15,859 nucleotides of DNA from an uncultured bacterium (GCA_964637705.1 CAZWVM010000073.1:1-15859), one strand, 5' to 3'. Counted from the stretch's first letter, positions 300 through 14,097 are shown. Made by a program: numbers and translations. The notes: a model not told the origin generated them from the letters alone.

Positions 300-1089
300 G
301 CCGCGCATGGAGACAAACGTCGAAGCCGCACGGCCCCGCACCGCGCTCGTCACCGGCGTGGCGAACAAGCAATCGATCGCCTGGGCCATCGCCAAAGCCC
401 TCGCCGACGAGGGTTACGAGATCTGCCTGACCCACGCGAGCGCGCGGCTGAAGGAGGACGTGGAGTCGCTGGCCTCGACCCTCCCGAAGGCCTTCACGGC
501 GCCCCTGGACGTGACCAACGACGTGGAAGTGGCGCGGATCGGCGAGACGCTCGCCGCGCGCTGGGCCTCGCTCGACGCCCTCGTCCACTCCATCGCCTTC
601 GCCAACCGCGAGGATCTCGGGGGGCGCTTCGTCAACCTCTCGCGCGGCGGATTCCGCACGGCCCTGGAGGTCTCGGCCTATTCGCTCGTCTCGCTGACGC
701 ACGCGGTCCTGCCCCTCCTGGAGTCGGCTCGCGGCTCCGTGGTCACGCTCTCCTACCTCGGCGGCCAGAAGGTGATCCCGAACTACAACGTCATGGGCGT
801 CGCGAAGGCGGCGCTGGAAATGAGCGCGAAGTACCTCGCGGCGGACCTCGGCCCCTCCGGCGTCCGCGTCAACGTCCTCTCCCCCGGGCCCATCAAAACC
901 TTCGCGGCGCGCGCGATCTCGAACTTCTCCGAGCTCCTGGGGAAATTCGAGGAGAAGGCGCCGTTGAGGCGCCTGATCACCACCGACGAGGTCGCTTCGA
1001 CGGCCGCGTTTCTGCTTTCGGAGAAATCCGCGGGCATCACCGGCCAGGTCATCTTCATCGACGGCGGTTACGAAATCCTCGGATACTAA
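298..1089 (+). CDS. fabI: enoyl-[acyl-carrier-protein] reductase (NADH), FabI, SDR family
   Basis: 263-aa ORF. N-terminal LVTGVANKQSIAWAIAKAL is a FabI-type Rossmann motif. A Y-x6-K region (SAKYLAADLG) and LSPGPIKT are present. A weak GGGGTG purine run precedes ATG 298. The alternative start ATG 307 sits 7 nt after a TGgTAAAAT extended -10 and could be a leaderless start. Confidence 0.9.
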   Translation: MPRMETNVEAARPRTALVTGVANKQSIAWAIAKALADEGYEICLTHASARLKEDVESLASTLPKAFTAPLDVTNDVEVARIGETLAARWASLDALVHSIAFANREDLGGRFVNLSRGGFRTALEVSAYSLVSLTHAVLPLLESARGSVVTLSYLGGQKVIPNYNVMGVAKAALEMSAKYLAADLGPSGVRVNVLSPGPIKTFAARAISNFSELLGKFEEKAPLRRLITTDEVASTAAFLLSEKSAGITGQVIFIDGGYEILGY

Positions 1090-1394
1090 ATTACCATCCT
1101 GACGCCCACGATGAGGCGCAATTCCCGGTCGATCCGATCCATCGCCTCACGGCTCTCGACGCGCGTCGTGAAGTGGTAGCTCACGTACTTGCCGGCGCCG
1201 GAGACGTTGCCGGGAAGGAGCGGGGAGCGGACGCCCAGTTCCATGAGAATCGTCTCGATCGTGAAGTGCATGTGCGGGTGATCCTCCGCGATCACGCGGA
1301 AGTGGCAGTCGAGCGGGAAGACGAGTTCGGCCGGGCGCACGGACGGCGCGGGGCCGTCCTTCCCTGCACGCGCCCCGGCGTCGTCCCCGCTCAT
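1086..1394 (-). CDS. ybeD: YbeD/DUF493 (UPF0250) family small protein, 102 aa with a ~20-aa N-terminal extension
   Basis: The C-terminal 80 aa (LVFPLDCHFRVIAE...SGAGKYVSYHFTTRVESREAMDRIDRELRLIVGVRMVI) align with E. coli YbeD (LEFPTPFTYKVMGQ...[38 protein letters not shown]). Start is taken as ATG 1394-1392, which overlaps the giant gene's TGA (1393-1391) as ATGA. The upstream part of the 191-aa track ORF is Arg/Gly-rich out-of-frame overlap with the giant CDS and is not credible coding. The stop overlaps the fabI stop convergently. Confidence 0.7.
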   Translation of the reverse strand: MSGDDAGARAGKDGPAPSVRPAELVFPLDCHFRVIAEDHPHMHFTIETILMELGVRSPLLPGNVSGAGKYVSYHFTTRVESREAMDRIDRELRLIVGVRMVI

Positions 1395-4300
1395 CGCGGA
1401 TGGCGCGAGCGCGGCCGCCCGGCCGGCGCGGCGGGCGGAACCTTCGGCACGCCGCCCGGTCCCACGACCGGCTGGATCTTCAGGTGCATCGAGGAATAAG
1501 GCGCGAACTTGCCGTCGGGGTTCACGATCGTGAAGGGCAGGATCTCCGTGTGCGGCACCTCCAGCCCCCGGTTCGTCACGTTCAGCCACTGGAAGGTGAG
1601 GCGCGCCTGGTTCTCCGAGGTGATCTCGAACGAAAGCGCGACCTCGCCGCGTTCCACGCACGGCCGGTTCTTCGGATCCGCCGGAGGAACGTGAGTGATC
1701 GTCGAGCCGTCCCGGATGACGACGGGACGGACCTTGTCGTAGATGAAGAAGTGGGAGCCGGGACGGAATCCCGCCCCGTTCAAGGTGTAGACCCGCGGAG
1801 CGAAGCTCACCGTCTCGCCCAGCGGCAGTTCAAAGACGTCGCTGTATTCGCCCTCGAACTGGGGCGAGCCGTCCGCGGAGACGGCCGGGTAGGGCGTCTG
1901 GTCCGCGACGCTCGAGGCGGCGAGTTGGTTCGCCGTGGGCGCGGCCCCCGACGATCCCGCCGGCGCGGGAGCGGCGGCCGGCGTCGGCATCACGAAGACC
2001 TGCGGCTCCGGCATCGTGATCTGCGGCTCCACGCTCACCTGCGGCGCCTCCACGTTCACCTGCGGCGCCGTCGCCGCGGTCGCCGGGGAAGCCGTGAAGC
2101 GCAGGTCCGCGGCGAGCGCCTTCAGGGCCGCAAGCGTCTCGGGGGCGAGCGAAGTCTCCGTCCGGACCGTCTCAGCCTCGGGCTTCTTCACCATCTCCGC
2201 CGCGGTCGCGACCGCCGTCGAGAAGGCCTTCGTGATCGTCGACTGCAGGGCATCGATGCCCTCGCGGAACGAGGAGAGTTGCGCGACGACGCGGCCGACC
2301 GGGTCGGCGGGATCCCCCTGCCCCATCACCAGGTGGCGCTTGTAGGCCTTCTTGATCTCGTCCCACCGCTCCGCGTCCTTCTGCGAGAGCTTCCCGGCCA
2401 TCTCCTTGAACTTCAGGAGGTTCGCCTCCGAGCCCGTGGTCAGGGTCTGGGCCTCGTTCTTGTAGTGGTCGTACAGGAGGTCGTCGATCTCGGATTCCGT
2501 CATGATCGGCAGGACCTTCTCGGCGAGCCGATTCATGTTGCGGTAGGAGCCCTGGAGCTTGAAGGGCGGCTCGGTGCGGTAGGCCTCCGCCATCGCCGCG
2601 GAACGGATGTATTCCTGGTTCACGCGGTAGACCGTCTCGCGCACCTTGAGAAGACGCTTCATGACCTCCGTCATCTCGTTCAGTTCCTCGGGCGAGTAGT
2701 TCCCCTCCAGTTCCACCGACTCGCCGCGCCCGCTCCGCGCCAGCCGGATCACGCCCTGCACGTCCTTCTGGCTCGAGCGCGCGAGGCGGGCGAGGATGGG
2801 ATTGGAGGTGATGGAGTTCTCGAGGTAGCTGTCGCGGAACATCTCCTCGTTGTTCGAGACGACGTCGCCGAGGTTGTAGGTGTCGGCGCGGTTGGCGAGC
2901 ATGTCCGGGATGCGGAACTTCTCGCCGCTCTCGGTGTATGGGTTTCCCGCCATGACGACCATCACCTTGCGCCCCCGCAGGTCGTAGGTGCGCGGCGTTC
3001 CTCTCCAGACGCCCTCGATCCGCCGCTGGGCATCGCAGAGGGAGATGAACTTCTGGAGGAACTCGGGGTTCGTGTGCTGGATGTCGTCCACGCAGATCAT
3101 GACGTTGTCGCCCATCTCCAGGGCGAGGTTCAACTTGTTGACCTCCTCGCGCGCCGAGGCGTTGGGCGCCTCCTCGGGATCCAGCGAGAGGACGCGCTCG
3201 CCCAGGGCCGGGCCGTTCACCTTCATGAAGACGATGCCCAGCCGGTTCGCGATGTATTCCATCAAGGTCGTCTTGCCGTAGCCGGGCGGAGAGACGAGCA
3301 GGAGAAGTCCCATGCGGTCGGTCCGCTTCGCCGCGCCGACGACGCCCAGTTGCTTCGCCATGTTCGCGCCCACGAGCGGCAGGTAGAACTTGTCGATGAG
3401 CTGGTTGCGGACGAAGGTCGTCAGGACCTTGGGCATGTACTCCGCGAGCCGCAGTTCCGTCCGGCGGCGCTCGAGCAGTTCCTTCTTCATCGCGGTGTAG
3501 CGCTCGAAGGCGGGCTTCTCGACCCCCGCGAATCGCGCGAGCCGTTTCATGAACTCGTGGTAGTGGATCTCCATCCGCCCGCCGGTGATCCGCGCATGGG
3601 TGCCGATGAGGCCGTCGACGGTGACGGAGAGCGAATGCGCGGCCTCGGTCGTGACGGTGGCTCCTCGACCGAGGAGCACGACGGCGGCCTTCTCCACGAG
3701 GGCCGCGTCGTGCCTCGATCCCTCGCCCGTGCGGAAGGCCGCGAGCCAGCCGCGCACCACGGCCAGCTCCGTCCGGCGGTCGGCGCGCACCGCCTCACGC
3801 GCCGCCTCGAAATCCTTCAGCGCTCCCTTCCCTCTCAGGTTCTCCTGGAAGTCGGACAGGAAGGCCGCGACCTCGGGGCTCACGGGGAACTTCGCCCCGC
3901 CCGCGCAGAGCAATTCGAAGAGGTATTCCGCGGCCTCGCCCGCGTGCTCCTCGTCGAACCACCCGGACCGGGCGAAGGCGAGGAGCCGCGCCTGGAGGTC
4001 GCCGACCTCCGAGCGGTCGTCCCAGGCCGGGAAGAGTCGCCGCGCCGCGCCGAGCGACTTGAGGCGCGCGGCCATGAGCGCCTTCTCCTCGGCCTCGGAG
4101 GGATCCTCCCACCAGAGCCGCGCCGCCGCGCGCGCGCCCGGGGAGAACCGGAGGAGCCTCAACTCGGCGTGGAAGCGGAGGAGTTCGCGGAGGATCCGGG
4201 CGGCGTCCACGTCGTGCACGCCCTTGACGTAGCCCTCCGCGTAGCGCGGAGCCGCCGCCTCCTTCACCTTCGCCTGCCGCTCCTCGGCGGAAAGCGCGCG

Positions 4301-7114
4301 CAGGGCCTCGATCGCGTCGTCGCCCCGCGCGGCCGCCTCGCGGAGCATCTCGTAGGCGAGATACTCGGCGCGGTAGACCGCGCGGTTCTCCGAGACGATC
4401 TCCTGGTCCCAGACCTCGCGCGTCGCGAGGAATTCCGGGTCCTCCACCCTCTCGAAGTAGTTCGTTCCCGTGAGGTGGACGTGCATGGCGCCGTCCTTGA
4501 GGACGAGCGTGCAGTCGAGCGGCTGGGTGTTGACGGAGAAGGAATGGGGACCGAAGCGGATGACGTTCTCGCCCTCGGTGTAAAGCTCCAGCTTGTCCTT
4601 GATCTGCCTCACGGCGTCCTGCTGGATCGTCTTCAACCGGCCGAGGACCTCGTCGGCCCGGACCGTGTCCTCGATCTCCGTGAGCTTCGCGGCCGTGTCG
4701 CGCGCCTTCTCGACCATGAGGTCGGAGGCGAACCAGGCGTTGAGCTCGTCGAGCGACTTGAAGCTCATCGCCCTGTTGCGGATCCCGGCGAGGATCCGGT
4801 CCGCGGTCTCGGCGAGCGCGTTGGCGCGCTTCTGCCGCGCCTCGGCCAGCTGGACCTTGCGCGTCGAGAAGGCGGAGTAGATCTCCTCGCGCTTCGCGCC
4901 GAGCTGCGTCACGAACTCGTCGAAGTCCGCGAACCGCCCCTCCAGCTCCTCGACCTGCACCATCAGCTTCGTCAGGTACTCGTCGCACTTCTGCGTCGTG
5001 TCGCAGAGGTCGATGAAGTTGGTGACGGCCTGGCCGAGGAGCTTCAACTGGGCCCCGAACTGGGCCGCGCCCTCGACGGAGGAGAGGTCGCGGCGGCGGC
5101 CCCTCACCAGCGACTTGACCTGGTTCAGGGTGGCGTAGATCGTCGAGATGGAGTCGATGATCCGCGTCGATTCGGTCGCGTCCTCGATCTTCAGCCCGCC
5201 CACGATCTCGATGAGCATCTCGAGCTCGCCCGCCGCCTTCCCGATCTCCTCCTCCGCCCTCGTGGCGTCGACGACCTTCGCGATCCCCGCCACGCCGCCC
5301 CGGAAGGACTCCGCCCGATCGGCGTATGGCTTGAGCGCGGCAGGCTCGAGGAGGAATTTCACGCAGAGCTGCGAGAGCCGGTCCGCGTGCTCGATGACCT
5401 GGGTCTCCATGGCCTGGAGGCGCGCCGCGTCGATGTAGCGGACGTCGCGCGCCGAGACGATCTCGCCCCGGAGAGCCCTCAAGCCCGAGAGGTGCCCGAC
5501 GAAGACGTCGATCGAAGGGAGATTGTGGTAGTCGATCGCGCCCGCGCGATCCTTGAGCTTCGCTTCCAGGGCGTTCAGCGCCTCGCGGGCGTTGCGTTTC
5601 AGTCGCGAGACCTTCTCGAACTCTTCGATCGCCGCCGCCGCCGCGTCGCGGATCCCCGCGAGGGGCGCGGAGAGGTCGCCGATCTCCCCTTCACCCAGCC
5701 AGAAGTAGGTATCGAGGATGGTGGAGGTCTTCCGGACCAGGTCGAGGTAAAGACCGCCGTAGGTGTCCTCCTTCCGGCAGAGCGTCAGCACCTCGAAGCA
5801 CTCCGACATCGCGTTGACGACCGCGGAGTTTCCGACCTTGAAGAGGAAGGAATCGGTCTTGGCCTCCGTGACGACGTTGGAGCCGAGGAAGGGCGTGCGC
5901 CAGACCTGGAGCGCGTGGTGCTTCTGGGGCTCGACGGGCGAGCGGAAGAGGATCATCTCGCCGTTCTCGAAGACCGAGAAGCCGTTGCAGATGATCGGCG
6001 TCTTCACCTTCTGCTCGATGCGGTTGTACGCCAGCAGGATATCGACACCCGTCTCGCGGTTCAGGAAGTCGTAGAGGTAATCCTCGCCGTTCGGGGCGTC
6101 GACGCGCGCGGCATAGACCATGTCCGTGAACTCGTTCTCGAAGATCTTGTACTCGCCCGTCTGCAAGTAATAGCCGTGGGCGAAGATGATGCCGTGCCCG
6201 TCGGGCAGGAGGACGCAGGCCTTCTCGATGTCGTCGATCCGGCGGACCTCCTTCACCTTCTCGCTGTAGACGAGGTAGCGGAATTGTTTCTCCTGGAAGG
6301 GGCGGATCTTGAGGATCACGAGGGCGTCGAGGATCGCGTAGTAGATCTCCGCGTCGTCGAGCGTCTGGTCCCGGTTCTCGACCGGCTCGGAGTAGATGCC
6401 CTCGCCGCTCTCGGTGTTGTCCTCGATCTTGACGGTCAGGTCGCCGCCGAGGCACTCCACGAAGACGCGGTCCTCGATCGAGACGTGCGGGAAGCGACCG
6501 GCCCTGTGGTAATCCCTGACGGCCCGCTTCCACTCGAACTCGTGCTGGGGCGGGTACTTGAACTCGTGGTCGCTCCGGTTGTCGAGATACTGGATCCCCC
6601 GCTCGTCGATCGCCCACTTGAAGACCTTCAGGTCGGAGAGGGACTTGCCGACCTGGAAGGCCATGTAGAGGAACGGCCCGATCACGCGGAAGGCCGAGAA
6701 GGTCGACTCGCGGTAGTACTTGTAGAGTTCCTTGAAGTCGGACTCGAAATCCCCCGACTTCAAGGGATCGAGCGGCTCCTCGTGGAACATCCGCCCGCGA
6801 TACGAGTAGATCGAGAAGACGTCCTCGAGCTTCGTCTCGGTCTTCAGCCCCATCCGGACGTTGTAGCCGAAGAGGAACCTGTTCCCGCCCAGGGGCACCA
6901 TGTCCCTCGGCACGCAGTTGTTCGGAGTCGTGATGCGCTCGGTCCCCAGGAGCGTGAACTCGATCGCGCCGAAGACGTCCCGCCGCTTCGCGTTGAGGAT
7001 CTCGAGGCGCTCGGAGAGCGACTCCGCGTGAGTCGCGAGGCGCTGGCGGAGGATCTCGTAGGTGCCGGTCTCCAAGCCGCCCGGTCGAGCGGTGACGGGC
7101 GCGCTTTCAGCCAC
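1391..7114 (-). CDS. giant (1907 aa) hypothetical protein with a single central MoxR/dynein-like (AAA_5-type) P-loop ATPase module, a Pro/Gln/Val-rich linker and a C-terminal ~150-aa globular domain
   Basis: Long ORF with normal amino-acid composition; the opposite-strand 2067-aa ORF is Arg/Leu/Gly-biased junk. Walker A is LLLLVSPPGYGKTTL (K~1281). Walker B is NVMICVDDIQH (D1343-D1344), about 62 aa later. A sensor-1-like VMVVMAGNPYTESGEKFRIPDMLANRADTYNL parallels the MoxR ATQNP..E.G...LPEA.LDRF pattern. The start is GTG 7114, 53 nt after the flotillin stop. No other domain was recognised in the ~1240 N-terminal residues. Confidence 0.85.
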   Translation of the reverse strand: MAESAPVTARPGGLETGTYEILRQRLATHAESLSERLEILNAKRRDVFGAIEFTLLGTERITTPNNCVPRDMVPLGGNRFLFGYNVRMGLKTETKLEDVFSIYSYRGRMFHEEPLDPLKSGDFESDFKELYKYYRESTFSAFRVIGPFLYMAFQVGKSLSDLKVFKWAIDERGIQYLDNRSDHEFKYPPQHEFEWKRAVRDYHRAGRFPHVSIEDRVFVECLGGDLTVKIEDNTESGEGIYSEPVENRDQTLDDAEIYYAILDALVILKIRPFQEKQFRYLVYSEKVKEVRRIDDIEKACVLLPDGHGIIFAHGYYLQTGEYKIFENEFTDMVYAARVDAPNGEDYLYDFLNRETGVDILLAYNRIEQKVKTPIICNGFSVFENGEMILFRSPVEPQKHHALQVWRTPFLGSNVVTEAKTDSFLFKVGNSAVVNAMSECFEVLTLCRKEDTYGGLYLDLVRKTSTILDTYFWLGEGEIGDLSAPLAGIRDAAAAAIEEFEKVSRLKRNAREALNALEAKLKDRAGAIDYHNLPSIDVFVGHLSGLRALRGEIVSARDVRYIDAARLQAMETQVIEHADRLSQLCVKFLLEPAALKPYADRAESFRGGVAGIAKVVDATRAEEEIGKAAGELEMLIEIVGGLKIEDATESTRIIDSISTIYATLNQVKSLVRGRRRDLSSVEGAAQFGAQLKLLGQAVTNFIDLCDTTQKCDEYLTKLMVQVEELEGRFADFDEFVTQLGAKREEIYSAFSTRKVQLAEARQKRANALAETADRILAGIRNRAMSFKSLDELNAWFASDLMVEKARDTAAKLTEIEDTVRADEVLGRLKTIQQDAVRQIKDKLELYTEGENVIRFGPHSFSVNTQPLDCTLVLKDGAMHVHLTGTNYFERVEDPEFLATREVWDQEIVSENRAVYRAEYLAYEMLREAAARGDDAIEALRALSAEERQAKVKEAAAPRYAEGYVKGVHDVDAARILRELLRFHAELRLLRFSPGARAAARLWWEDPSEAEEKALMAARLKSLGAARRLFPAWDDRSEVGDLQARLLAFARSGWFDEEHAGEAAEYLFELLCAGGAKFPVSPEVAAFLSDFQENLRGKGALKDFEAAREAVRADRRTELAVVRGWLAAFRTGEGSRHDAALVEKAAVVLLGRGATVTTEAAHSLSVTVDGLIGTHARITGGRMEIHYHEFMKRLARFAGVEKPAFERYTAMKKELLERRRTELRLAEYMPKVLTTFVRNQLIDKFYLPLVGANMAKQLGVVGAAKRTDRMGLLLLVSPPGYGKTTLMEYIANRLGIVFMKVNGPALGERVLSLDPEEAPNASAREEVNKLNLALEMGDNVMICVDDIQHTNPEFLQKFISLCDAQRRIEGVWRGTPRTYDLRGRKVMVVMAGNPYTESGEKFRIPDMLANRADTYNLGDVVSNNEEMFRDSYLENSITSNPILARLARSSQKDVQGVIRLARSGRGESVELEGNYSPEELNEMTEVMKRLLKVRETVYRVNQEYIRSAAMAEAYRTEPPFKLQGSYRNMNRLAEKVLPIMTESEIDDLLYDHYKNEAQTLTTGSEANLLKFKEMAGKLSQKDAERWDEIKKAYKRHLVMGQGDPADPVGRVVAQLSSFREGIDALQSTITKAFSTAVATAAEMVKKPEAETVRTETSLAPETLAALKALAADLRFTASPATAATAPQVNVEAPQVSVEPQITMPEPQVFVMPTPAAAPAPAGSSGAAPTANQLAASSVADQTPYPAVSADGSPQFEGEYSDVFELPLGETVSFAPRVYTLNGAGFRPGSHFFIYDKVRPVVIRDGSTITHVPPADPKNRPCVERGEVALSFEITSENQARLTFQWLNVTNRGLEVPHTEILPFTIVNPDGKFAPYSSMHLKIQPVVGPGGVPKVPPAAPAGRPRSRHPR
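1995..2070 (-). repeat. about 4 imperfect tandem copies of an 18-21-nt unit (ctgcggc[tg]cc...) encoding the PQV-rich linker (APQVNVEAPQVSVEPQITMPEPQVFVMP) of the giant protein
   Basis: ctgcgg recurs at about 2000, 2021, 2039 and 2060. The encoded peptide is low complexity and Pro/Ala/Val/Gln-rich. Confidence 0.5.
2855..3400 (-). other. AAA+ (MoxR/McrB/dynein-clade) ATPase module of the giant protein. P-loop codons lie at about 3266-3292 and Walker B codons at about 3074-3097
   Basis: SPPGYGKTT and VDDIQH motifs read from the translation. These codon positions are frame-consistent with the 7114 start. Confidence 0.7.
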
Positions 7115-7167
7115 GGTCCACGCCCGACGAGCCGCGCTTCACGCCGACGCCCCTACGCCGAACGCAC

Positions 7168-9093
7168 TCAGCCCTTCTTCCCCAGGACGTTCTCCAGCAG
7201 TTCCTGCGCGATGCCGGACTTGGCCTCGTCCTTGCCGCCCTTCAGGAGCGCGCGGGCCTCGGTGAGAACCTGGCTGGAATCGACCGCCCGGTCGACGGCC
7301 TTGCCCGCGGTGATCGCGTTGACGATCCGGTCGAAGAACTGCGTCTCGCCGCCGACGATGTCGACCTTGGCGTTGGAGAGCGCCTCGCCCAGGACCTTGG
7401 CCTGGCTCTCCGCGACGTCCTTGCGGATGCCGATCTCCGCGAGCGCGACGTCCTTCTCGACGTTGAGCCTCAGCTTGAACTCCTCGTGCTGGCGCCCCGC
7501 CTCGTGGAAGAGCTTCATGGCCTCGGCCTTCTTCGTGATCCCGTCCGCCTCGGCCTTGAACTTGAGCTGGGCCACCGAGGCCTCGGTCTCGCCCTGCTTC
7601 TGAAGCGCCGCCGCCTTCGCGCCGATGACGTTGGCCTCCGCCAGCCCCGACGCGGCCTGTTCCGCGGTCACGCCCTCCGCGAGGGCCTTCTTCCCGACCG
7701 CGATCTTGATGCTGGCGTTCTGCTCGCCCTCGGCCTCGATCACTTCCTGCTCGGCCTCGAGCTCCGCGGCCTTTTTCGCGGCCTCCGCCGCCTTCAAGCG
7801 GACGATCATGTCCTGGTCGGCCTTCAATTCCGCCGCCTTCTTCGCCGCCTCCGCGGCCTTCACGTTCTTGACGACCGCCTGCTCCGCCTCGGCCTCGGCC
7901 ATCGTCAGCATGACCTTCTTCTCGCGCTCGGCGGTCGCGAAGGCCTCGGTGTCCTTCACCCTCTGTTCCTCGGCCACCACGTCCTTCTGGACCATGACCC
8001 GGGCGCGGATGACCTCCTGGATGTTCTTCTGCTCGGTCTCCACCGCCTTGGTCTTCTCGATCGTGGCGAGCGAGGTGATCTTCTCGCGCTCGATGTCCTC
8101 CAACTGGCGGTCCTTCTCGACGCGCACCTTCTCCACGGCGTCCGTGCGCTCGCGGTTGCGCGCCGCCACGATGACCTGCCGGTTCTTGTTCTCCTCCGAG
8201 ACCTGGATCTCCTCGTCCGAGGCGATCCGCGCCTTCTCGTGCTTCAACCTCTGCTCCTGCTGGAACTTGATCGTCTCGGCCTCTTCCCGCGCCTTGATCG
8301 AGGCGACCTCGCGCATCTGCTTCTGCTCGGCCTCCGCCAGTTGGCGATTCTGCTCGAGGATGATCTCGCGGGTCTCGACGTCCTTCTTGTTGATCTCCCG
8401 CTCCTTGTCGCGGTTCCGCTCGTTGGTGAGGACCGCCTGCGCGGCGGTGCGCTCGGTGATCAGCTTGATGCCCTCGGCGTCGAGGATGTTGTTCGGATCG
8501 AGCTTCTCGACCTTGGACTGCTCGAGGATGTCGATGGCCGCGTCGTCGAGGACGTAGCCGTTGAGATCGGTGCCGACGTGGCGCTTGATCGCCTCGCGGA
8601 ACTCCGCGCGCTTGTTCAGGAGATCCTCGAAGTTGAAGTCGCGCCCGGCCGTTTTCAGGGCGTCCGAGAACTTCGGCTCGAAGAGTTCGGCCAGGACCTG
8701 GGGATCGGAGGCGCGCACGCAGCCGAGCGTCTGCGCCACCATCTTCACGTGCTCGGGAAGCTTGGAGTCCACGCGGATGTAGAAGGTGACCTTGATGTCG
8801 GCACGGAGGTTGTCCTTGCAGATGAGGCCGGTCGAGCCCTCGCGATGGATCTCCACGCGCTTCACGCTGATGTCCATCATCTCGAGCCGGTGCACGATCG
8901 GGAAGACGAAGATGCCCGAGTCGAAGGAGATCTGGATGCCGCCCACGCCCGTTCGGACGAGCGCCTGACCCTGCTGGGGAATCCGGTAGGTCCAGCCGAT
9001 GATGAGCCGCAGGATTCCATACAACACGGCGAAGCCCACGAGAGCCGCCAGGACCATGCCGATGGCGGAAACGATCCAGGTGATGATTTCCAT
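7168..9093 (-). CDS. flotillin-like SPFH/band-7 domain protein (FloT/YqiK type). It has an N-terminal TM helix, an SPFH domain, and a long Ala/Glu/Lys-rich coiled coil
   Basis: 641 aa. The N-terminus is MEIITWIVSAIGMVLAALVGFAVLYGIL (TM). The SPFH core is KDNLRADIKVTFYIRV...NFEDLLNKRAEFREAIKRHV. The C-terminal half carries KAAEAAKKAAEL-type EA repeats. An AAAGGGG SD-like run lies 7-9 nt before ATG 9093. The alternative-frame 863-aa ORF is Arg/Gly junk. Confidence 0.9.
   Translation of the reverse strand: MEIITWIVSAIGMVLAALVGFAVLYGILRLIIGWTYRIPQQGQALVRTGVGGIQISFDSGIFVFPIVHRLEMMDISVKRVEIHREGSTGLICKDNLRADIKVTFYIRVDSKLPEHVKMVAQTLGCVRASDPQVLAELFEPKFSDALKTAGRDFNFEDLLNKRAEFREAIKRHVGTDLNGYVLDDAAIDILEQSKVEKLDPNNILDAEGIKLITERTAAQAVLTNERNRDKEREINKKDVETREIILEQNRQLAEAEQKQMREVASIKAREEAETIKFQQEQRLKHEKARIASDEEIQVSEENKNRQVIVAARNRERTDAVEKVRVEKDRQLEDIEREKITSLATIEKTKAVETEQKNIQEVIRARVMVQKDVVAEEQRVKDTEAFATAEREKKVMLTMAEAEAEQAVVKNVKAAEAAKKAAELKADQDMIVRLKAAEAAKKAAELEAEQEVIEAEGEQNASIKIAVGKKALAEGVTAEQAASGLAEANVIGAKAAALQKQGETEASVAQLKFKAEADGITKKAEAMKLFHEAGRQHEEFKLRLNVEKDVALAEIGIRKDVAESQAKVLGEALSNAKVDIVGGETQFFDRIVNAITAGKAVDRAVDSSQVLTEARALLKGGKDEAKSGIAQELLENVLGKKG
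7735..7866 (-). repeat. in-frame tandem duplication (~66 nt, 22 aa) inside the flotillin coiled coil. KAAEAAKKAAELKADQDMIVRL is followed by KAAEAAKKAAELEAEQEVIEAE
   Basis: Two near-identical DNA copies (gcggcctttttcgcggcctccgccgccttca and gccgccttcttcgccgcctccgcggccttca) lie about 66 nt apart. Coordinates are approximate. Confidence 0.5.
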
Positions 9094-9174
9094 GCCTGAC
9101 CCCTTTCAATCCCCCGAGTTGTTCCGTGAGTGCGTAGAAGCGGCGTGCCGGTAAAACGGTACCGTGAAGACCTT

Positions 9175-10890
9175 TTATGTCAACGTCTTTGAAGCGACGA
9201 CGGTTCCCTCCCGCGATTCCTCGACCGTCAGCGAGGCGATCGCGGACGACAGTCCGATCTCCCAGGAGGCCGACTCCCCCCCGCGCCGGTCGATGACCGA
9301 AAGCACGACCGGGATCTCGGAGGGGTCGGAGAGCCCGTTCAGGTGGACCGAGCCGAAGAAGACGGCGACGCCCTCGAACGCCAGCGTCCGCGCCTCGGCG
9401 AGAGCGCGCTCGACCTGGGTCCGGGCCTGGAGAACGGCCACGAGCAGGGGGCGCGCAGCCTCGCCGCAACCCCGGATCTCGTCCAGGTCGCGGCCGGAGA
9501 GCGTGGCCGCCACGTCCGCGATGCGCGGGATCGCGTGGTCGCCCTCGAGAACCGCCCGCAGTGCGCCGCAGCAGTGAGACTCCCGGCCGTAGCGGTCCAT
9601 GCATCCGTAGACCCGCCGACCCTCCTTCTCCATCACGCCGCAATGCGACTGGAGACGCGCGATGAGCGCGAGCGTCCCGCCACCATCGAAGTGGCGGGCC
9701 GCGATGGAGAGCGATCCGGGTTCGTAGCATCCGCCGCGGTTGGAGGTGACGACCGCCGAGCCGCGGCCCTCGGACAGGGCGGGCAGCATCAGGCCCACGC
9801 CGCTCCGGGCGAAGCGCACCCGCGAATCCTGCTCCGCTTCGTCGGTGCAGGTCACGTGCAGGGCCCCCACGCGATCACAGGCGAAGTACCGGACGAGCGC
9901 CGCCAGGAGCACGTTCGTCCGGAAGAGAGGCGTCTCGCGTCCGATCACGGCACGGATGCGTTTCTCGAGGAACCGGTCAGACAAAAGGCCCGGCGCGCCT
10001 GCGCACCGGTTCGGGAACCGCGACGCCGGGGTGCTCGGCGCGGAGATCGTCGCGGCGACGGAGACGTCGGCGGCGGAGAGGATGCGCGCCGGCTCCAGGG
10101 TGGGGCCGGCCATCGGCTTCTTCTCGAGCGCGGCGGCCGCGGCGGCGGGAGCCATGACGTCCATGCGGGGCGCGTCGACCGGGCCAGTCTCGGAGGTGGC
10201 GACGTGCGGCGGCGCATGAGGATCCTCGGGGACCACCGCCCGCGCCGCCTCCAGGGACTCCTGGACGCGCTCGTGAATCTCGTTCGGATCCAGCCGTCCC
10301 TTCTTCGCGTCGTCCCAGACCTCCCCGAGGTCCTGCGATGCCTTCCTCGCCATCTCCTCGATCGCCGCACGGCCCTCGTCGTACTGCTTCCTGAGGACAC
10401 CGGTCACGTCGACGACCTGTTCCGCGATCGTCGCCTCCGGCCTAGCCGCCGCGGCCGCGGCCGGCGAGAACTCGCCGAGGAGATCCCTCACCGCCGAGGC
10501 CACCTCGTCCGGCTTCGCCTTCCCGCGCGCCGCCGCCTCGATCTGGGACTTCACCCACTCGGCGCGCCTCAGGACATTCTCGCGTTTCTCCTTCAGCCGG
10601 TCCTCGCCGTCGGAGAGGAGGTCCTTCACCTCGGCGGCCGTCTCCGTCCAGTCAGGCGCTTCACCGCGCTTCGACGCGGTTCGCGCCGCCACGCGAGCCA
10701 AGACGTCGGGCTGATCTTTCAGTTCGCCGAGAGCGTCGTTGATCAGGGCGCGGAGCGCCTTGCGATTCTGCTTGCGGAAGAGCGGCAGCAGGGTCTCGGC
10801 CGCGCCCTTCGTCTCGAAGGAATCGTGGAGGGTGCGCGCCTGCTCGAGAAGCGACTCGAGAGCCGAGGACTCAACCGGATTCGTTCTCAC
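9175..10890 (-). CDS. hypothetical protein (571 aa) with an N-terminal alpha-helical/coiled-coil region, a Pro/Ala-rich linker and a Cys/His-rich C-terminal domain
   Basis: ORF with plausible composition; the opposite-strand 665-aa ORF is Arg-rich junk. The GTG start at 10890 overlaps the upstream gene's TGA as GTGA. C-terminal Cys pattern: FAC, TCT, GGCYEPG, SHCG, YGCMD, SHCCG, RGCGE. No family recognised. No TM segment, so it is not NfeD. The 5' end is uncertain because few in-frame Met are present. Confidence 0.6.
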   Translation of the reverse strand: MRTNPVESSALESLLEQARTLHDSFETKGAAETLLPLFRKQNRKALRALINDALGELKDQPDVLARVAARTASKRGEAPDWTETAAEVKDLLSDGEDRLKEKRENVLRRAEWVKSQIEAAARGKAKPDEVASAVRDLLGEFSPAAAAAARPEATIAEQVVDVTGVLRKQYDEGRAAIEEMARKASQDLGEVWDDAKKGRLDPNEIHERVQESLEAARAVVPEDPHAPPHVATSETGPVDAPRMDVMAPAAAAAALEKKPMAGPTLEPARILSAADVSVAATISAPSTPASRFPNRCAGAPGLLSDRFLEKRIRAVIGRETPLFRTNVLLAALVRYFACDRVGALHVTCTDEAEQDSRVRFARSGVGLMLPALSEGRGSAVVTSNRGGCYEPGSLSIAARHFDGGGTLALIARLQSHCGVMEKEGRRVYGCMDRYGRESHCCGALRAVLEGDHAIPRIADVAATLSGRDLDEIRGCGEAARPLLVAVLQARTQVERALAEARTLAFEGVAVFFGSVHLNGLSDPSEIPVVLSVIDRRGGESASWEIGLSSAIASLTVEESREGTVVASKTLT

Positions 10891-11381
10891 CGGGCCTCAA
10901 ACTCCGCCGGTGGCCTCTTCGCGATGACCTCCTCGAGCAGGGCCGCGATCCGGTCCAGCCGATCGATGATCCTGTTATCGGCGGGCGGAAGAAGTTCACG
11001 GGTGCCTCGCTGTTGCACGCCCTCCGCCACGGCCAGTCCCTGCATGGCCGGGCCGATGCCCATGACCAGGCCGAGGATGTACTTGCCGAGGGGCGTCACC
11101 GCCCCTCCCCCGTCGGAGACCGCGGCGATGCATGTGCTGACGGTCCAGAAGGCGTCCGCGAAGGACGTGACCCGGGGATTCCGATCCTCTTCGGCGAGAA
11201 AGAAAAGGATCGAGCCGGCCAGAGTCGCCGTCATGATGCTGTCGATCGGACGCTCCGAGACGTGGCGCACCGCGAGTTCCTTGAGCATGGGAGAAGAAGA
11301 ACCGGGCGCGGGCGTCGGCCGCGAACCCGTGACGGCGTAAAGGAGATCTCCGGTCAGACCATCGAGAAAGGACTCCGCCAT
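10887..11381 (-). CDS. small two-TM pore-loop ion-channel homologue (KcsA-like fold) with a non-canonical selectivity filter
   Basis: 164 aa from ATG 11381. A perfect GGAGGA SD lies at about 11394-11389, 7 nt upstream; the track ORF's GTG at 11387 is less likely. The layout is TM1 (SIMTATLAGSILFFLAE), a pore helix (SFADAFWTVSTCIAAV, compare KcsA YPRALWWSVETATTV), a filter position reading SDGGG instead of GYGD, and TM2 (GKYILGLVMGIGPAMQGLAVA). Confidence 0.7.
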   Translation of the reverse strand: MAESFLDGLTGDLLYAVTGSRPTPAPGSSSPMLKELAVRHVSERPIDSIMTATLAGSILFFLAEEDRNPRVTSFADAFWTVSTCIAAVSDGGGAVTPLGKYILGLVMGIGPAMQGLAVAEGVQQRGTRELLPPADNRIIDRLDRIAALLEEVIAKRPPAEFEAR

Positions 11382-11425
11382 GGTCACATCCTCCCCAACC
11401 CGCCCCGCCTCGGGTCTCCGGGGGG

Positions 11426-11454
11426 AATCTCCGGGAGAAGACTCATTCTGTCAA
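11426..11454 (-). promoter_or_regulatory. candidate sigma70-type promoter of the five-gene minus-strand cluster. Perfect -35 TTGACA (11454-11449), 17-nt spacer, weak -10 GAGATT (11431-11426)
   Basis: Read from sequence. It lies in the 173-nt divergent intergenic region, about 45 nt upstream of the SD/ATG of the channel gene. The -10 is poor, so this is tentative. Confidence 0.3.
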
Positions 11455-11534: not shown

Positions 11535-11564
11535 TTGACGGCGCCCGGTGCGCCGTGGTCCAAT
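11535..11564 (+). promoter_or_regulatory. candidate promoter of the RCK-channel gene. -35 TTGACG (11535-11540), 18-nt spacer, TGg + TCCAAT (11556-11564), then 8 nt to ATG 11573. Possibly leaderless
   Basis: Read from sequence. No SD precedes ATG 11573. Confidence 0.3.
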
Positions 11565-11572
11565 CCTCGCCG

Positions 11573-12583
11573 ATGACCTCATTGCGCGCGCGCCTCGTCT
11601 ACGCCCGGATCCTCTGGAAGGAATTCCGCGCTTCGATACTCGCCTTCATCGCGGTCCTCGCGCTCGGCACCCTCGCCACGCACGCTCTCTACGACATCGC
11701 GCCCCTCAGCCTGCCCGAGGCGCTCTGGGGCACCTTCACGCTCATCTTCTTCCAGCCGTCCCTCGCCTTTCCCCGTCACCCCGCGCTCGAGGCCGTCTTC
11801 TTCCTCATTCCCGTCGTCAGCTTCCTCATGGTCGTCGAGGGTTTCCTGCGCTTCGGCGCTCTCGTCGTCAACCGCAACCAGAACCCGGAGGTGTGGAACA
11901 TGGCCCTGGCCCAGTCCTTCGAGAATCACGTCGTGATCGCCGGCATGGGAAAGATCGGGCTCCGCGCCGCCCGACTGCTCCTCGACGACGGCGAGCGCCT
12001 GGTCTGCGTGGAGAAGAACCCGGAATCGCTGCCGCGGACGGAGTTCGAGGAGCGCGGGGCGGCCCTGATCACCGGCAACATCCTCGCCGACGACGTCTTC
12101 CGCAAGGTTCACGTGGAGAAGGCCAAGTGCTTCATGGCCTGCACCGACGACGACCTCGTCAACTTCGAGTCGGCGCTGAAGGCGCGCGCGGTCAACCCCG
12201 GCATCCGCGTGGTGCTGCGTCTCTTCAACGACAAGCTGGCGTCCCAGATGGAATCGAACTTCAACATCTCGATCGTCTACAGCTCCTCCGCCCTCGCCGC
12301 GCCCTCCTTCGCCTCCGCGGTCTACTCCAAGAACATCAAGGACTCCTTCGTGATCGACCACGAGCGTTTCTGCCTCCTGCACTGCCTCGTCGACGCGGTG
12401 TCGCCGTTTTGCGGCCTGGTACACGCGGACGTGGAGCGGCAGTTCGAGGCGACGATCGTGGTGCACAAGGATTCCGCGAAGAGGAAGAAGCCCGGGGATC
12501 CGCAGACGCCGGTCGAAGAGGGAGACAACCTCATCCTCATCGTTCCCTTCCGCGTGGTGAAGGCAAAGGCGGGACGGATCTAG
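11573..12583 (+). CDS. MthK-like 2TM + RCK (TrkA-N / TrkA-C) ion-channel family protein with a degenerate pore signature
   Basis: The N-terminal TM pair flanks a pore-loop-like LPEALWGTFTLIFFQPS (MthK: SLYWTFVTIATVGYGD). The TrkA-N Rossmann motif is HVVIAGMGKIGLRAARLLLDDGERLVCVEKNPE. The TrkA-C-like C-terminus is DNLILIVPFRVVKA. The track ORF begins at GTG 11555; ATG 11573 is preferred (see the promoter note). Confidence 0.8.
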   Translation: MTSLRARLVYARILWKEFRASILAFIAVLALGTLATHALYDIAPLSLPEALWGTFTLIFFQPSLAFPRHPALEAVFFLIPVVSFLMVVEGFLRFGALVVNRNQNPEVWNMALAQSFENHVVIAGMGKIGLRAARLLLDDGERLVCVEKNPESLPRTEFEERGAALITGNILADDVFRKVHVEKAKCFMACTDDDLVNFESALKARAVNPGIRVVLRLFNDKLASQMESNFNISIVYSSSALAAPSFASAVYSKNIKDSFVIDHERFCLLHCLVDAVSPFCGLVHADVERQFEATIVVHKDSAKRKKPGDPQTPVEEGDNLILIVPFRVVKAKAGRI

Positions 12584-13704: not shown

Positions 13705-13849
13705 AGCCATGAAATTGATCAGGGAAGTATCTGTGCCTGAGTTCTTGGTGATTAGGCTTGGACCTCTCACAGAATAGCGGGGCCGCCGGCCGATAGGCCG
13801 CGGGCTAACAGACCTCCTTGAGCAATGAATTGTAAGGAGGTGGCCTAGC

Positions 13850-14050
13850 ATGGCAACCGGAACAGTCAAGTGGTTCAACGCCCAGAAGGGCTTCGGCTTC
13901 ATCAAGCAGGAGAACGGCGAAGATGTCTTCGTCCATTTCTCCGCGATCAAGTCTGAAGGCTACAAGACGCTCGACGAGGGCGCGAAGGTGAACTTCGAGG
14001 TCGTCAAGGGCGAGAAGGGTCTTCAGGCGGCGAACGTCACGCTCGGCTAA
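13850..14050 (+). CDS. cspA: cold-shock protein, CspA family (S1-like cold-shock domain)
   Basis: 66 aa [33 protein letters not shown]... with RNP1 (KGFGFI) and RNP2 (VFVHF) motifs. A strong SD AAGGAGGTG lies 8-9 nt upstream. Confidence 0.95.
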
Positions 14051-14066
14051 GAACCTGTCAACGAAG

Positions 14067-14097
14067 CGCCCGCCGGGCAACCGGCGGGCGTTTTCCT
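14067..14097 (+). terminator. rho-independent terminator downstream of csp. A 10-bp perfect GC stem (cgcccgccgg / ccggcgggcg) with a gcaa loop, followed by TTTTccTTT
   Basis: Read directly. It starts 17 nt after the csp stop (TAA 14048-14050). Confidence 0.7.

Follow-up and report, generated by a model that had tools for sequence, protein, structure and literature searches.

Bacterial flotillins have been widely studied, although their molecular job is debated. The closest described system to the one examined here is an operon delineated in silico that comprises CesT/Tir-PspA, a Band-7/flotillin protein, a beta-propeller/coiled-coil/AAA+ protein, and a YqiJ/YuaF protein with three transmembrane (TM) segments (Ravi et al., 2024, mSystems, PMC11237479). 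Abbreviated operons without PspA were more widely distributed and some included phospholipase D (PLD), and the gene order of one neighborhood, that of ANH61663.1 from Dokdonia donghaensis, is given in a supplementary table of the same study (PMC11237479). A search of the literature found YqiJ, flotillin, and an ATPase linked in this report only. Here, we describe a cluster of five genes (G1 to G5) in a stretch of 15,859 nucleotides (nt) from an uncultured bacterium (GCA_964637705.1, CAZWVM010000073.1:1-15859; hereafter, the window), in which the gene for a giant ATPase (G4) comes after that for a YqiK-type flotillin (G3), with three smaller genes alongside. A preliminary description of the window had proposed a new five-gene system built around a flotillin-giant pairing that was thought to be unreported.

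Gene order was compared among 84 loci that encode a homolog of the giant, affiliated with the Planctomycetota, Verrucomicrobiota, Bacteroidota, Desulfobacterota, Kiritimatiellota, and Omnitrophota and with one Clostridiaceae genome; upstream synteny was counted in those 70 loci whose upstream flank exceeds 2.2 kb. A flotillin gene on the same strand lies directly before the giant in 66 of these 70 loci (median gap of 126 nt), and a gene for a YqiJ/NfeD-like protein of ~210 amino acids (aa) precedes the flotillin in 56 of the 70. This ~210-aa partner yields sub-threshold matches to YqiJ_N and NfeD and aligns end to end with Escherichia coli YqiJ. Conservation is limited to two genes, that of a YqiK-type flotillin and, after it, that of a DUF3686/MoxR-like giant, and the pair is widespread across phyla. 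Homologs of G4 number more than 5700 at E ≤ 1e-10, with at least 594 matches to the giant in a species-representative genome set, and no mobile-element genes were seen at the flotillin-giant loci.

Bacteroidota loci of the giant family have a gene order exactly as published for D. donghaensis. In 13 loci, all of them Bacteroidota going by record title, a PspA gene is found at a distance of up to 10 kb from the giant (in 12 it is co-oriented with the giant and upstream of it; in the remaining one it is downstream in the opposite orientation), and CesT_Tir_1 precedes PspA in 11 of the 13, with a divergent helix-turn-helix regulator beyond; these assignments come from matches to PspA_IM30 (E = 1e-36) and CesT_Tir_1 (E = 1e-56). 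Neither CesT nor PspA is present among the genes of the window. Because the operon of Ravi et al. (2024, PMC11237479) already contains the flotillin-giant pairing, the pairing is not unreported. An NfeD-type partner is normally part of the module, as the YqiJ/NfeD-like gene in most loci shows, and the proposed order of channel, hypothetical protein, flotillin, giant, and YbeD-like protein does not recur: homologs of G1 and G5 were detected in none of the 84 giant loci, and those of G2 were found only in a few close relatives, after the giant. With three of the five genes and the giant either not syntenic in other genomes or already described, the case for a new five-gene system was not sustained.

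The slot after the giant is variable among loci, and most loci carry the pair with no accompanying enzyme gene. In verrucomicrobial loci in which YqiJ was not detected, an ~300-aa helical protein with a low-complexity tail is encoded directly after the giant, in either orientation (L053, 15484-16395; L065, 15589-16494; L066, 15617-16495; L075, 8422-9285; L082, 15500-16417; L083, 15524-16378). It matches no Pfam family, and the contig of L075 begins ~330 nt before the flotillin, such that a YqiJ gene could not show there. Other genes directly after the giant were read by eye in single genomes as PspA-like, TerB-like, and DUF4178-like (in listed groups: L034, 6790-7479; L035, 8439-8864, and L077, 14878-15255; L021, 14989-15633, and L040, 7084-7632).

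G3 comprises an N-terminal hydrophobic helix (aa 14-32, Kyte-Doolittle 2.46), a Band_7/SPFH domain (aa 40-222, Pfam E = 1.6e-13), and a long Ala/Glu-rich coiled coil, and it is 31% identical to E. coli YqiK across 459 aa (E = 7e-48). The SPFH domain, the N-terminal helix, and the match to YqiK together identify G3 as a YqiK-type flotillin; it has no match among PDB sequences. A profile of 56 YqiJ/NfeD-like partners searched against all six frames of the window recovered nothing at E ≤ 10, in agreement with the earlier observation that the window encodes no NfeD-like protein.

G4 is organized, from its N-terminus, as DUF3686, DUF7902, a helical region of ~750 aa rich in Ala, Glu, and Arg, an AAA+ module, a Pro/Ala linker, and a C-terminal beta domain. 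The DUF3686 region corresponds to beta-propeller repeats according to Ravi et al. (2024, PMC11237479), and no paper in the searched literature refers to DUF3686 by name. Pfam assigns the ATPase about equally to AAA_5 (28.6 bits, cutoff 22) and AAA (28.2 bits, cutoff 21.2), and matches to PDB sequences are confined to the P-loops of CDC48 and RuvB. In fold comparisons, the ATPase is nearest to CbbQ and NorQ of the MoxR clade, which supports the MoxR-type label that the giant had been given. No hydrophobic or membrane helix was found in G4, and it is therefore read as soluble; no protease domain was identified by Pfam. The end of G4 (1391-2250, aa ~1620-1907) consists of the Pro/Ala-rich linker and a beta-rich domain of ~150 aa that aligns only in the closest relatives (query coverage of 98-99% versus 85-90% in others). 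This domain was considered as a marker of partnership with G2 and discarded, given that the PLD-bearing homolog P0004 aligns over 98% of G4 and apparently keeps it.

Together with L003 (Candidatus Lindowbacteria), L004, L008, L090/L091, and L125, the window forms a small clade, the giants of which are 55-69% identical. In L003, L004, L008, and L090/L091 (four of the four relatives with visible flank), a homolog of G2 is positioned 3-20 nt downstream of the stop codon of the giant, and only in the window does G2 stand before the flotillin. The same slot in L125 is occupied by a gene for an HKD phospholipase D (PLDc_2; 10583-11269) that overlaps the stop of the giant by 4 nt. Thus, G2 is encoded in five of the six genomes of the clade and PLD in one, and an enzyme-like gene follows the giant directly in five of the six. 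Another six loci (L075, L082, L083, L021, L077, and L042) have a PLD homolog in their 10-kb flanks, in varying position and orientation. The profile of 56 YqiJ-like proteins detected no YqiJ in the G2-clade loci. The window clade has lost YqiJ/NfeD and carries an enzyme-like accessory gene instead, and the replacement of NfeD/YqiJ by a partner with a carbonic-anhydrase fold in this small lineage is the one new feature of the locus. No report of an LCIB-type domain associated with a flotillin was found in the literature.

This assignment of G2 is based on structure prediction and comparison of its C-terminal domain. A Pfam search of G2 returned no match (LCIB_C_CA reached E = 0.29 and 10.8 bits, below the threshold of 25). 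An AlphaFold model of aa 283-571, built with 50 family members, is confident, with a predicted local distance difference test (pLDDT) score of 92.6, and the top eight Foldseek matches to it are all LCIB/LCIC proteins (E = 9e-12 to 3e-6). Pfam LCIB_C_CA matches 14 of the 50 G2 relatives (best E = 1.2e-6), and the profile of the G2 family has no match among PDB sequences. The agreement of two methods together with weak Pfam support argues for the LCIB fold. LCIB proteins are regarded as a subgroup of the beta-carbonic anhydrases (PMC9614477).

Six residues are invariant in the 50 G2-family sequences: Cys348, Asp350, His416, Arg433, Cys441, and Gln492. In the model, Cys348 is located at the end of a strand and Cys441 at the start of a helix, as expected for the zinc site of a beta-carbonic anhydrase, and Cys348, Asp350, His416, and Cys441 are predicted to form a putative site of this type. 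The 25-residue spacing between His and Cys in G2 is one that we take to be LCIB-like, as opposed to the HxxC of canonical beta-carbonic anhydrases. The N-terminal half of G2 is helical with low-complexity sequence; a relationship to the ~300-aa helical proteins of the verrucomicrobial loci was considered and rejected (hhalign probability of 0.3%). G2 most likely serves the module as a lineage-specific accessory subunit or effector that putatively binds zinc.

Full-length relatives of G2 are rare, comprising ~5 clusters in an exhaustive profile search of 1.84 billion representatives. Some 160 additional clusters carry only the C-terminal domain of G2 and occur in other contexts with neither giant nor flotillin. 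A scan of metagenomes for G2-bearing loci recovered one further close relative, on a contig of 1.6 kb; the other 31 metagenome loci encode LCIB-like proteins that stand alone, with neither a giant nor a flotillin in the vicinity. The stand-alone proteins (L093-L123) are ~280 or ~410 aa in length and represent a rare family for which Pfam has no model. A secreted repeat protein of ~450 aa, which resembles TPR proteins by eye only, is encoded by a conserved neighbor in 15 of 32 stand-alone LCIB-like loci.

The remaining two genes of the cluster are G1 and G5. A Pfam search of G1 found no match, and its score against NCBIfam K_channel_Meth (E = 1.3e-4) was 21.9 bits versus a cutoff of 300. Matches of G1 to potassium-channel pores in the PDB are weak (E = 0.16-0.8), although it can be aligned to KcsA over the first TM helix (TM1), the pore helix, and the second TM helix (TM2) at 25% identity. 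The filter segment reads AVSDGGG in G1 and AVSDAGG in its sole homolog, as compared to TVGYGD in channels of the KcsA type, and the two helices of G1 are only mildly hydrophobic. That homolog, P0125 (47% identity), was the only one recovered from a large protein collection; it resides in an unrelated neighborhood, and no relatives of TrkA or G2 were found near it. By sequence, then, G1 weakly resembles a potassium-channel pore. The proposed channel fold persists to that extent, whereas a GYG filter and a family-level score are absent. Divergent from G1, the plus strand at 11555-12583 encodes another channel-like protein, which combines a TrkA_N (RCK) domain with two hydrophobic helices in its N-terminal part; the two genes share one intergenic region of 167 nt, and no sequence similarity was detected between them.

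The assignment of G5 as YbeD-like was borne out by its match to PF04359 (DUF493; 40.6 bits, cutoff 24), with a score against NCBIfam HP0495_fam of 33.5 bits, below the cutoff of 45. The 4-nt overlap of G4 and G5 was considered as proof that DUF493 belongs to the module, and this argument is weakened by the variability of the slot after the giant and by L016, where the gene that overlaps in the same manner looks, by eye only, like a housekeeping gene of the CoaBC type. G1 and G5 are best described as local neighbors, probably co-transcribed with the cluster, and not as demonstrated members of the module.

Features of the cluster are listed in Table 1. ORF coordinates and a reading of the junction sequences confirmed that five co-directional genes occupy positions 1086-11381 on the minus strand, as had been described, with a GTGA overlap between G1 and G2 (10887-10890, 4 nt), gaps of 81 nt between G2 and G3 (9094-9174) and 53 nt between G3 and G4 (7115-7167), and an ATGA overlap between G4 and G5 (1391-1394, 4 nt). 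The ATG start of G1 lies 7 nt after GGAGGA, which makes it likelier than the alternative start. A scan for terminator-like hairpins identified eight in the window, not above chance (5.5 +/- 2.5 expected); all eight are inside coding sequence and none are in the 81-nt and 53-nt gaps, consistent with the earlier statement that no terminator separates the genes. The promoter that had been proposed upstream held in part: the TTGACA hexamer is present, but a consensus scan found no complete sigma-70 promoter, the best -10 element being GAGATT (three of six matches, 17-nt spacer), which is weak. The five genes probably form one operon.

Table 1. Coordinates of the cluster genes and of features within or near them, numbered from the first nucleotide of the window.
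Feature	Position	Strand	Length or residues	Description
G1	10887-11381	-	164 aa	Weakly potassium-channel-pore-like; start at ATG 11381, GTG 11387 also open
G2	9175-10890	-	571 aa	Putative accessory protein with LCIB-like C-terminal domain
G2, C-terminal domain	9175-10044	-	aa 283-571	Predicted LCIB-type beta-carbonic-anhydrase fold
G3	7168-9093	-	641 aa	YqiK-type flotillin
G4	1391-7114	-	1907 aa	Giant ATPase, DUF3686/MoxR-like AAA+
G4, DUF3686 domain	5702-7018	-	aa 33-471	PF12458, E = 3.4e-177
G4, AAA+ module and helical lid/extension	2135-3517	-	aa 1200-1660	Walker A SPPGYGKTT; Walker B VMICVDD
G5	1086-1394	-	102 aa	DUF493/YbeD-like
TTGACA	11449-11454	-		Possible -35 element of the cluster, from sequence reading; suggestive only

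The GC content at third codon positions (GC3) is 0.80 in G1, 0.88 in G2, 0.95 in G3, 0.94 in G4, and 0.88 in G5. These values are close to the 0.87-0.92 of the flanking fabI, TrkA_N gene, glk (ROK glucokinase), and moaA, and the host-like composition reported for the cluster is upheld. The cluster is flanked by fabI, glk, a cspA-like gene, and moaA. G5 (minus strand) and fabI (plus strand) are convergent, with stop codons that overlap by 4 nt (1086-1089) and no space for a terminator between them. A gene for a 66-aa cold-shock protein lies between glk and moaA (13850-14050, plus strand) and was missing from the flank list of the preliminary description. The Rfam cspA thermoregulator scored 54.5 bits at 13717-14095, under its gathering score of 78, and Rfam and tRNA scans of the window returned nothing at threshold.

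We consider it probable, with moderate confidence, that the window carries a lineage-specific variant of a conserved housekeeping module for remodeling a membrane scaffold, in which the flotillin and the giant are the core and G2 is accessory. An oligomer of G3 would form the scaffold on the cytoplasmic side of the membrane, and the giant might dock on it as a hexamer through the propeller and coiled-coil arms and spend ATP to assemble, disassemble, or reorganize the flotillin/PspA scaffold or its clients during envelope stress. Several points weigh against this reading. Docking and remodeling are pure inference. The beta-propeller in the DUF3686 region is an assignment reported by Ravi et al. 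(2024, PMC11237479). The mapping of the putative zinc ligands of G2 onto LCIB is tentative. The 4-nt overlaps tie G1 and G5 to the cluster and may reflect a genuine functional coupling in this organism, and sequence upstream of the flotillin is available among the relatives only from L003 and L125, such that absence outside the window is weak evidence with respect to G1. A VWA/MIDAS protein is the normal partner of a MoxR ATPase, and Pfam detected no VWA domain in any of the nine proteins of the window.

That coupling is the substance of the proposal that all five genes constitute one conserved machine, in which the flotillin gates or organizes the G1 channel, the giant remodels the assembly, and G2 and G5 are subunits. 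The co-directional genes, the short overlaps of G1/G2 and G4/G5, the terminator-free gaps, and the likeness of G1 to a potassium-channel pore are as such a machine would have them, as are the second channel-like gene (TrkA_N) divergent beside G1 and the potassium channel that occurs in a different PspA-CesT operon type (Ravi et al., PMC11237479). It nevertheless appears improbable, given that G1 and G5 are absent from the 84 giant loci, the position of G2 shifts between genomes, the G1 filter is without GYG, and no curated family model scores G1 above its threshold. Nothing was found to link the flotillin to channel gating, and the sole homolog of G1 occurs in an unrelated setting. A serious rival, by analogy with HflK/C-FtsH, is that control is reversed: the flotillin scaffold would confine or regulate the giant, the substrates of which would be other (sub-)membrane proteins or lipid-modifying enzymes (PLD and G2), with the ATPase perhaps maturing PLD or G2. 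There is precedent for an SPFH assembly that confines an AAA+ enzyme, namely HflK/C with FtsH, and prohibitin is likewise paired with the m-AAA protease. The typical task of MoxR-type ATPases, among them CbbQ and NorQ, the best fold matches of G4, is to mature or activate another enzyme, and the enzyme-like genes directly after the giant (G2 homologs, and PLD in L125), together with PLD within 10 kb in six more loci, would supply candidate substrates. Yet the giant has neither a membrane anchor nor a protease domain and most loci carry no enzyme gene with the pair, and this arrangement is a possibility that we hold to be less probable than not by some way.

Two other explanations fit the data poorly. 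An anti-phage or conflict system composed of an SPFH protein and a large NTPase could be envisioned from the large multi-domain ATPase, the variable accessory genes downstream, and two marginal P-loop matches of G4 in PADLOC (mad8, E = 1.3e-3; IetA, E = 2.1e-3). However, no defense family had a meaningful PADLOC score for G4 and none was found for the other four proteins, the flanks are housekeeping genes with matching GC3, and the pair recurs, with at least 594 matches in species-representative genomes, with synteny that is stable across phyla and with no mobile-element genes seen. A defense role is therefore very unlikely, and the view that the cluster is native and not a defense island stands. 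That G4 is a DNA repair ATPase, as its database names would have it ('DNA repair ATPase' or 'ATPase involved in DNA repair'), is scarcely credible: the weak RuvB_N matches are limited to the P-loop, cover only ~50 residues about Walker A, and score far under cutoffs, the fold is nearest to MoxR, the invariable neighbors are membrane proteins and not repair genes, and DUF3686 is named in no paper of the searched literature.

Under the reading we favor, that of a scaffold-remodeling module with G2 as accessory, the giant beside a flotillin across several phyla is an obvious candidate for assembling or remodeling flotillin scaffolds, and it may connect them to the ESCRT-III-like PspA stress response. 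The window separates the core genes from local additions, the fold comparison places the ATPase module in the MoxR clade, and the carbonic-anhydrase-fold partner could provide a biochemical handle on the module. A more speculative extension, which we regard as doubtful, is that the NfeD-less clade swapped its canonical membrane partner for LCIB-type or PLD enzyme-like subunits, and that in this genome it perhaps also gained a potassium-channel-like pore, such that the scaffold would be coupled to CO2/bicarbonate/pH, lipid chemistry, or ion flux. If true, such a functional link would be without precedent among described flotillins.

Compared with known systems, the window has the order and orientation of flotillin then giant in common with the operon of Ravi et al., the giant following directly after the flotillin, and PLD is an occasional extra gene in that operon as it is among the loci examined here. 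Unlike that operon, the window is without YqiJ/YuaF, CesT, and PspA, and its LCIB-fold protein, channel-like protein, and DUF493 protein are unmentioned in the paper. G3 is a clear homolog of YqiK with an N-terminal helix and an SPFH domain, but the NfeD/YqiJ partner of E. coli yqiJK and Bacillus subtilis yuaFGI has no counterpart in the window, and the annotated yqiJK operon of E. coli is without a giant ATPase. Relative to LCIB/LCIC beta-carbonic anhydrases (PDB 5b5y, 5k5w, and 5b5x), G2 is only 13-18% identical and below the Pfam threshold, and its domain is joined to an N-terminal region of 280 aa and located in a flotillin operon, in a context that looks non-photosynthetic. G1 is like KcsA in TM1, the pore helix, and TM2, and unlike it in its filter (AVSDGGG versus TVGYGD), its mildly hydrophobic helices, and its failure to reach a family threshold. 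MoxR proteins such as CbbQ, NorQ, and RavA are ~270-500 aa in length and have a VWA/MIDAS partner, whereas G4, at 1907 aa, carries large additions on its N-terminal side and has no VWA gene in its vicinity. HflK/C-FtsH and prohibitin-m-AAA offer a working analogy for mechanism, in that an SPFH scaffold is genetically paired with an AAA+ ATPase, as here, although FtsH is a membrane-anchored classical AAA protease and G4 is soluble, MoxR-like, and without a protease domain.

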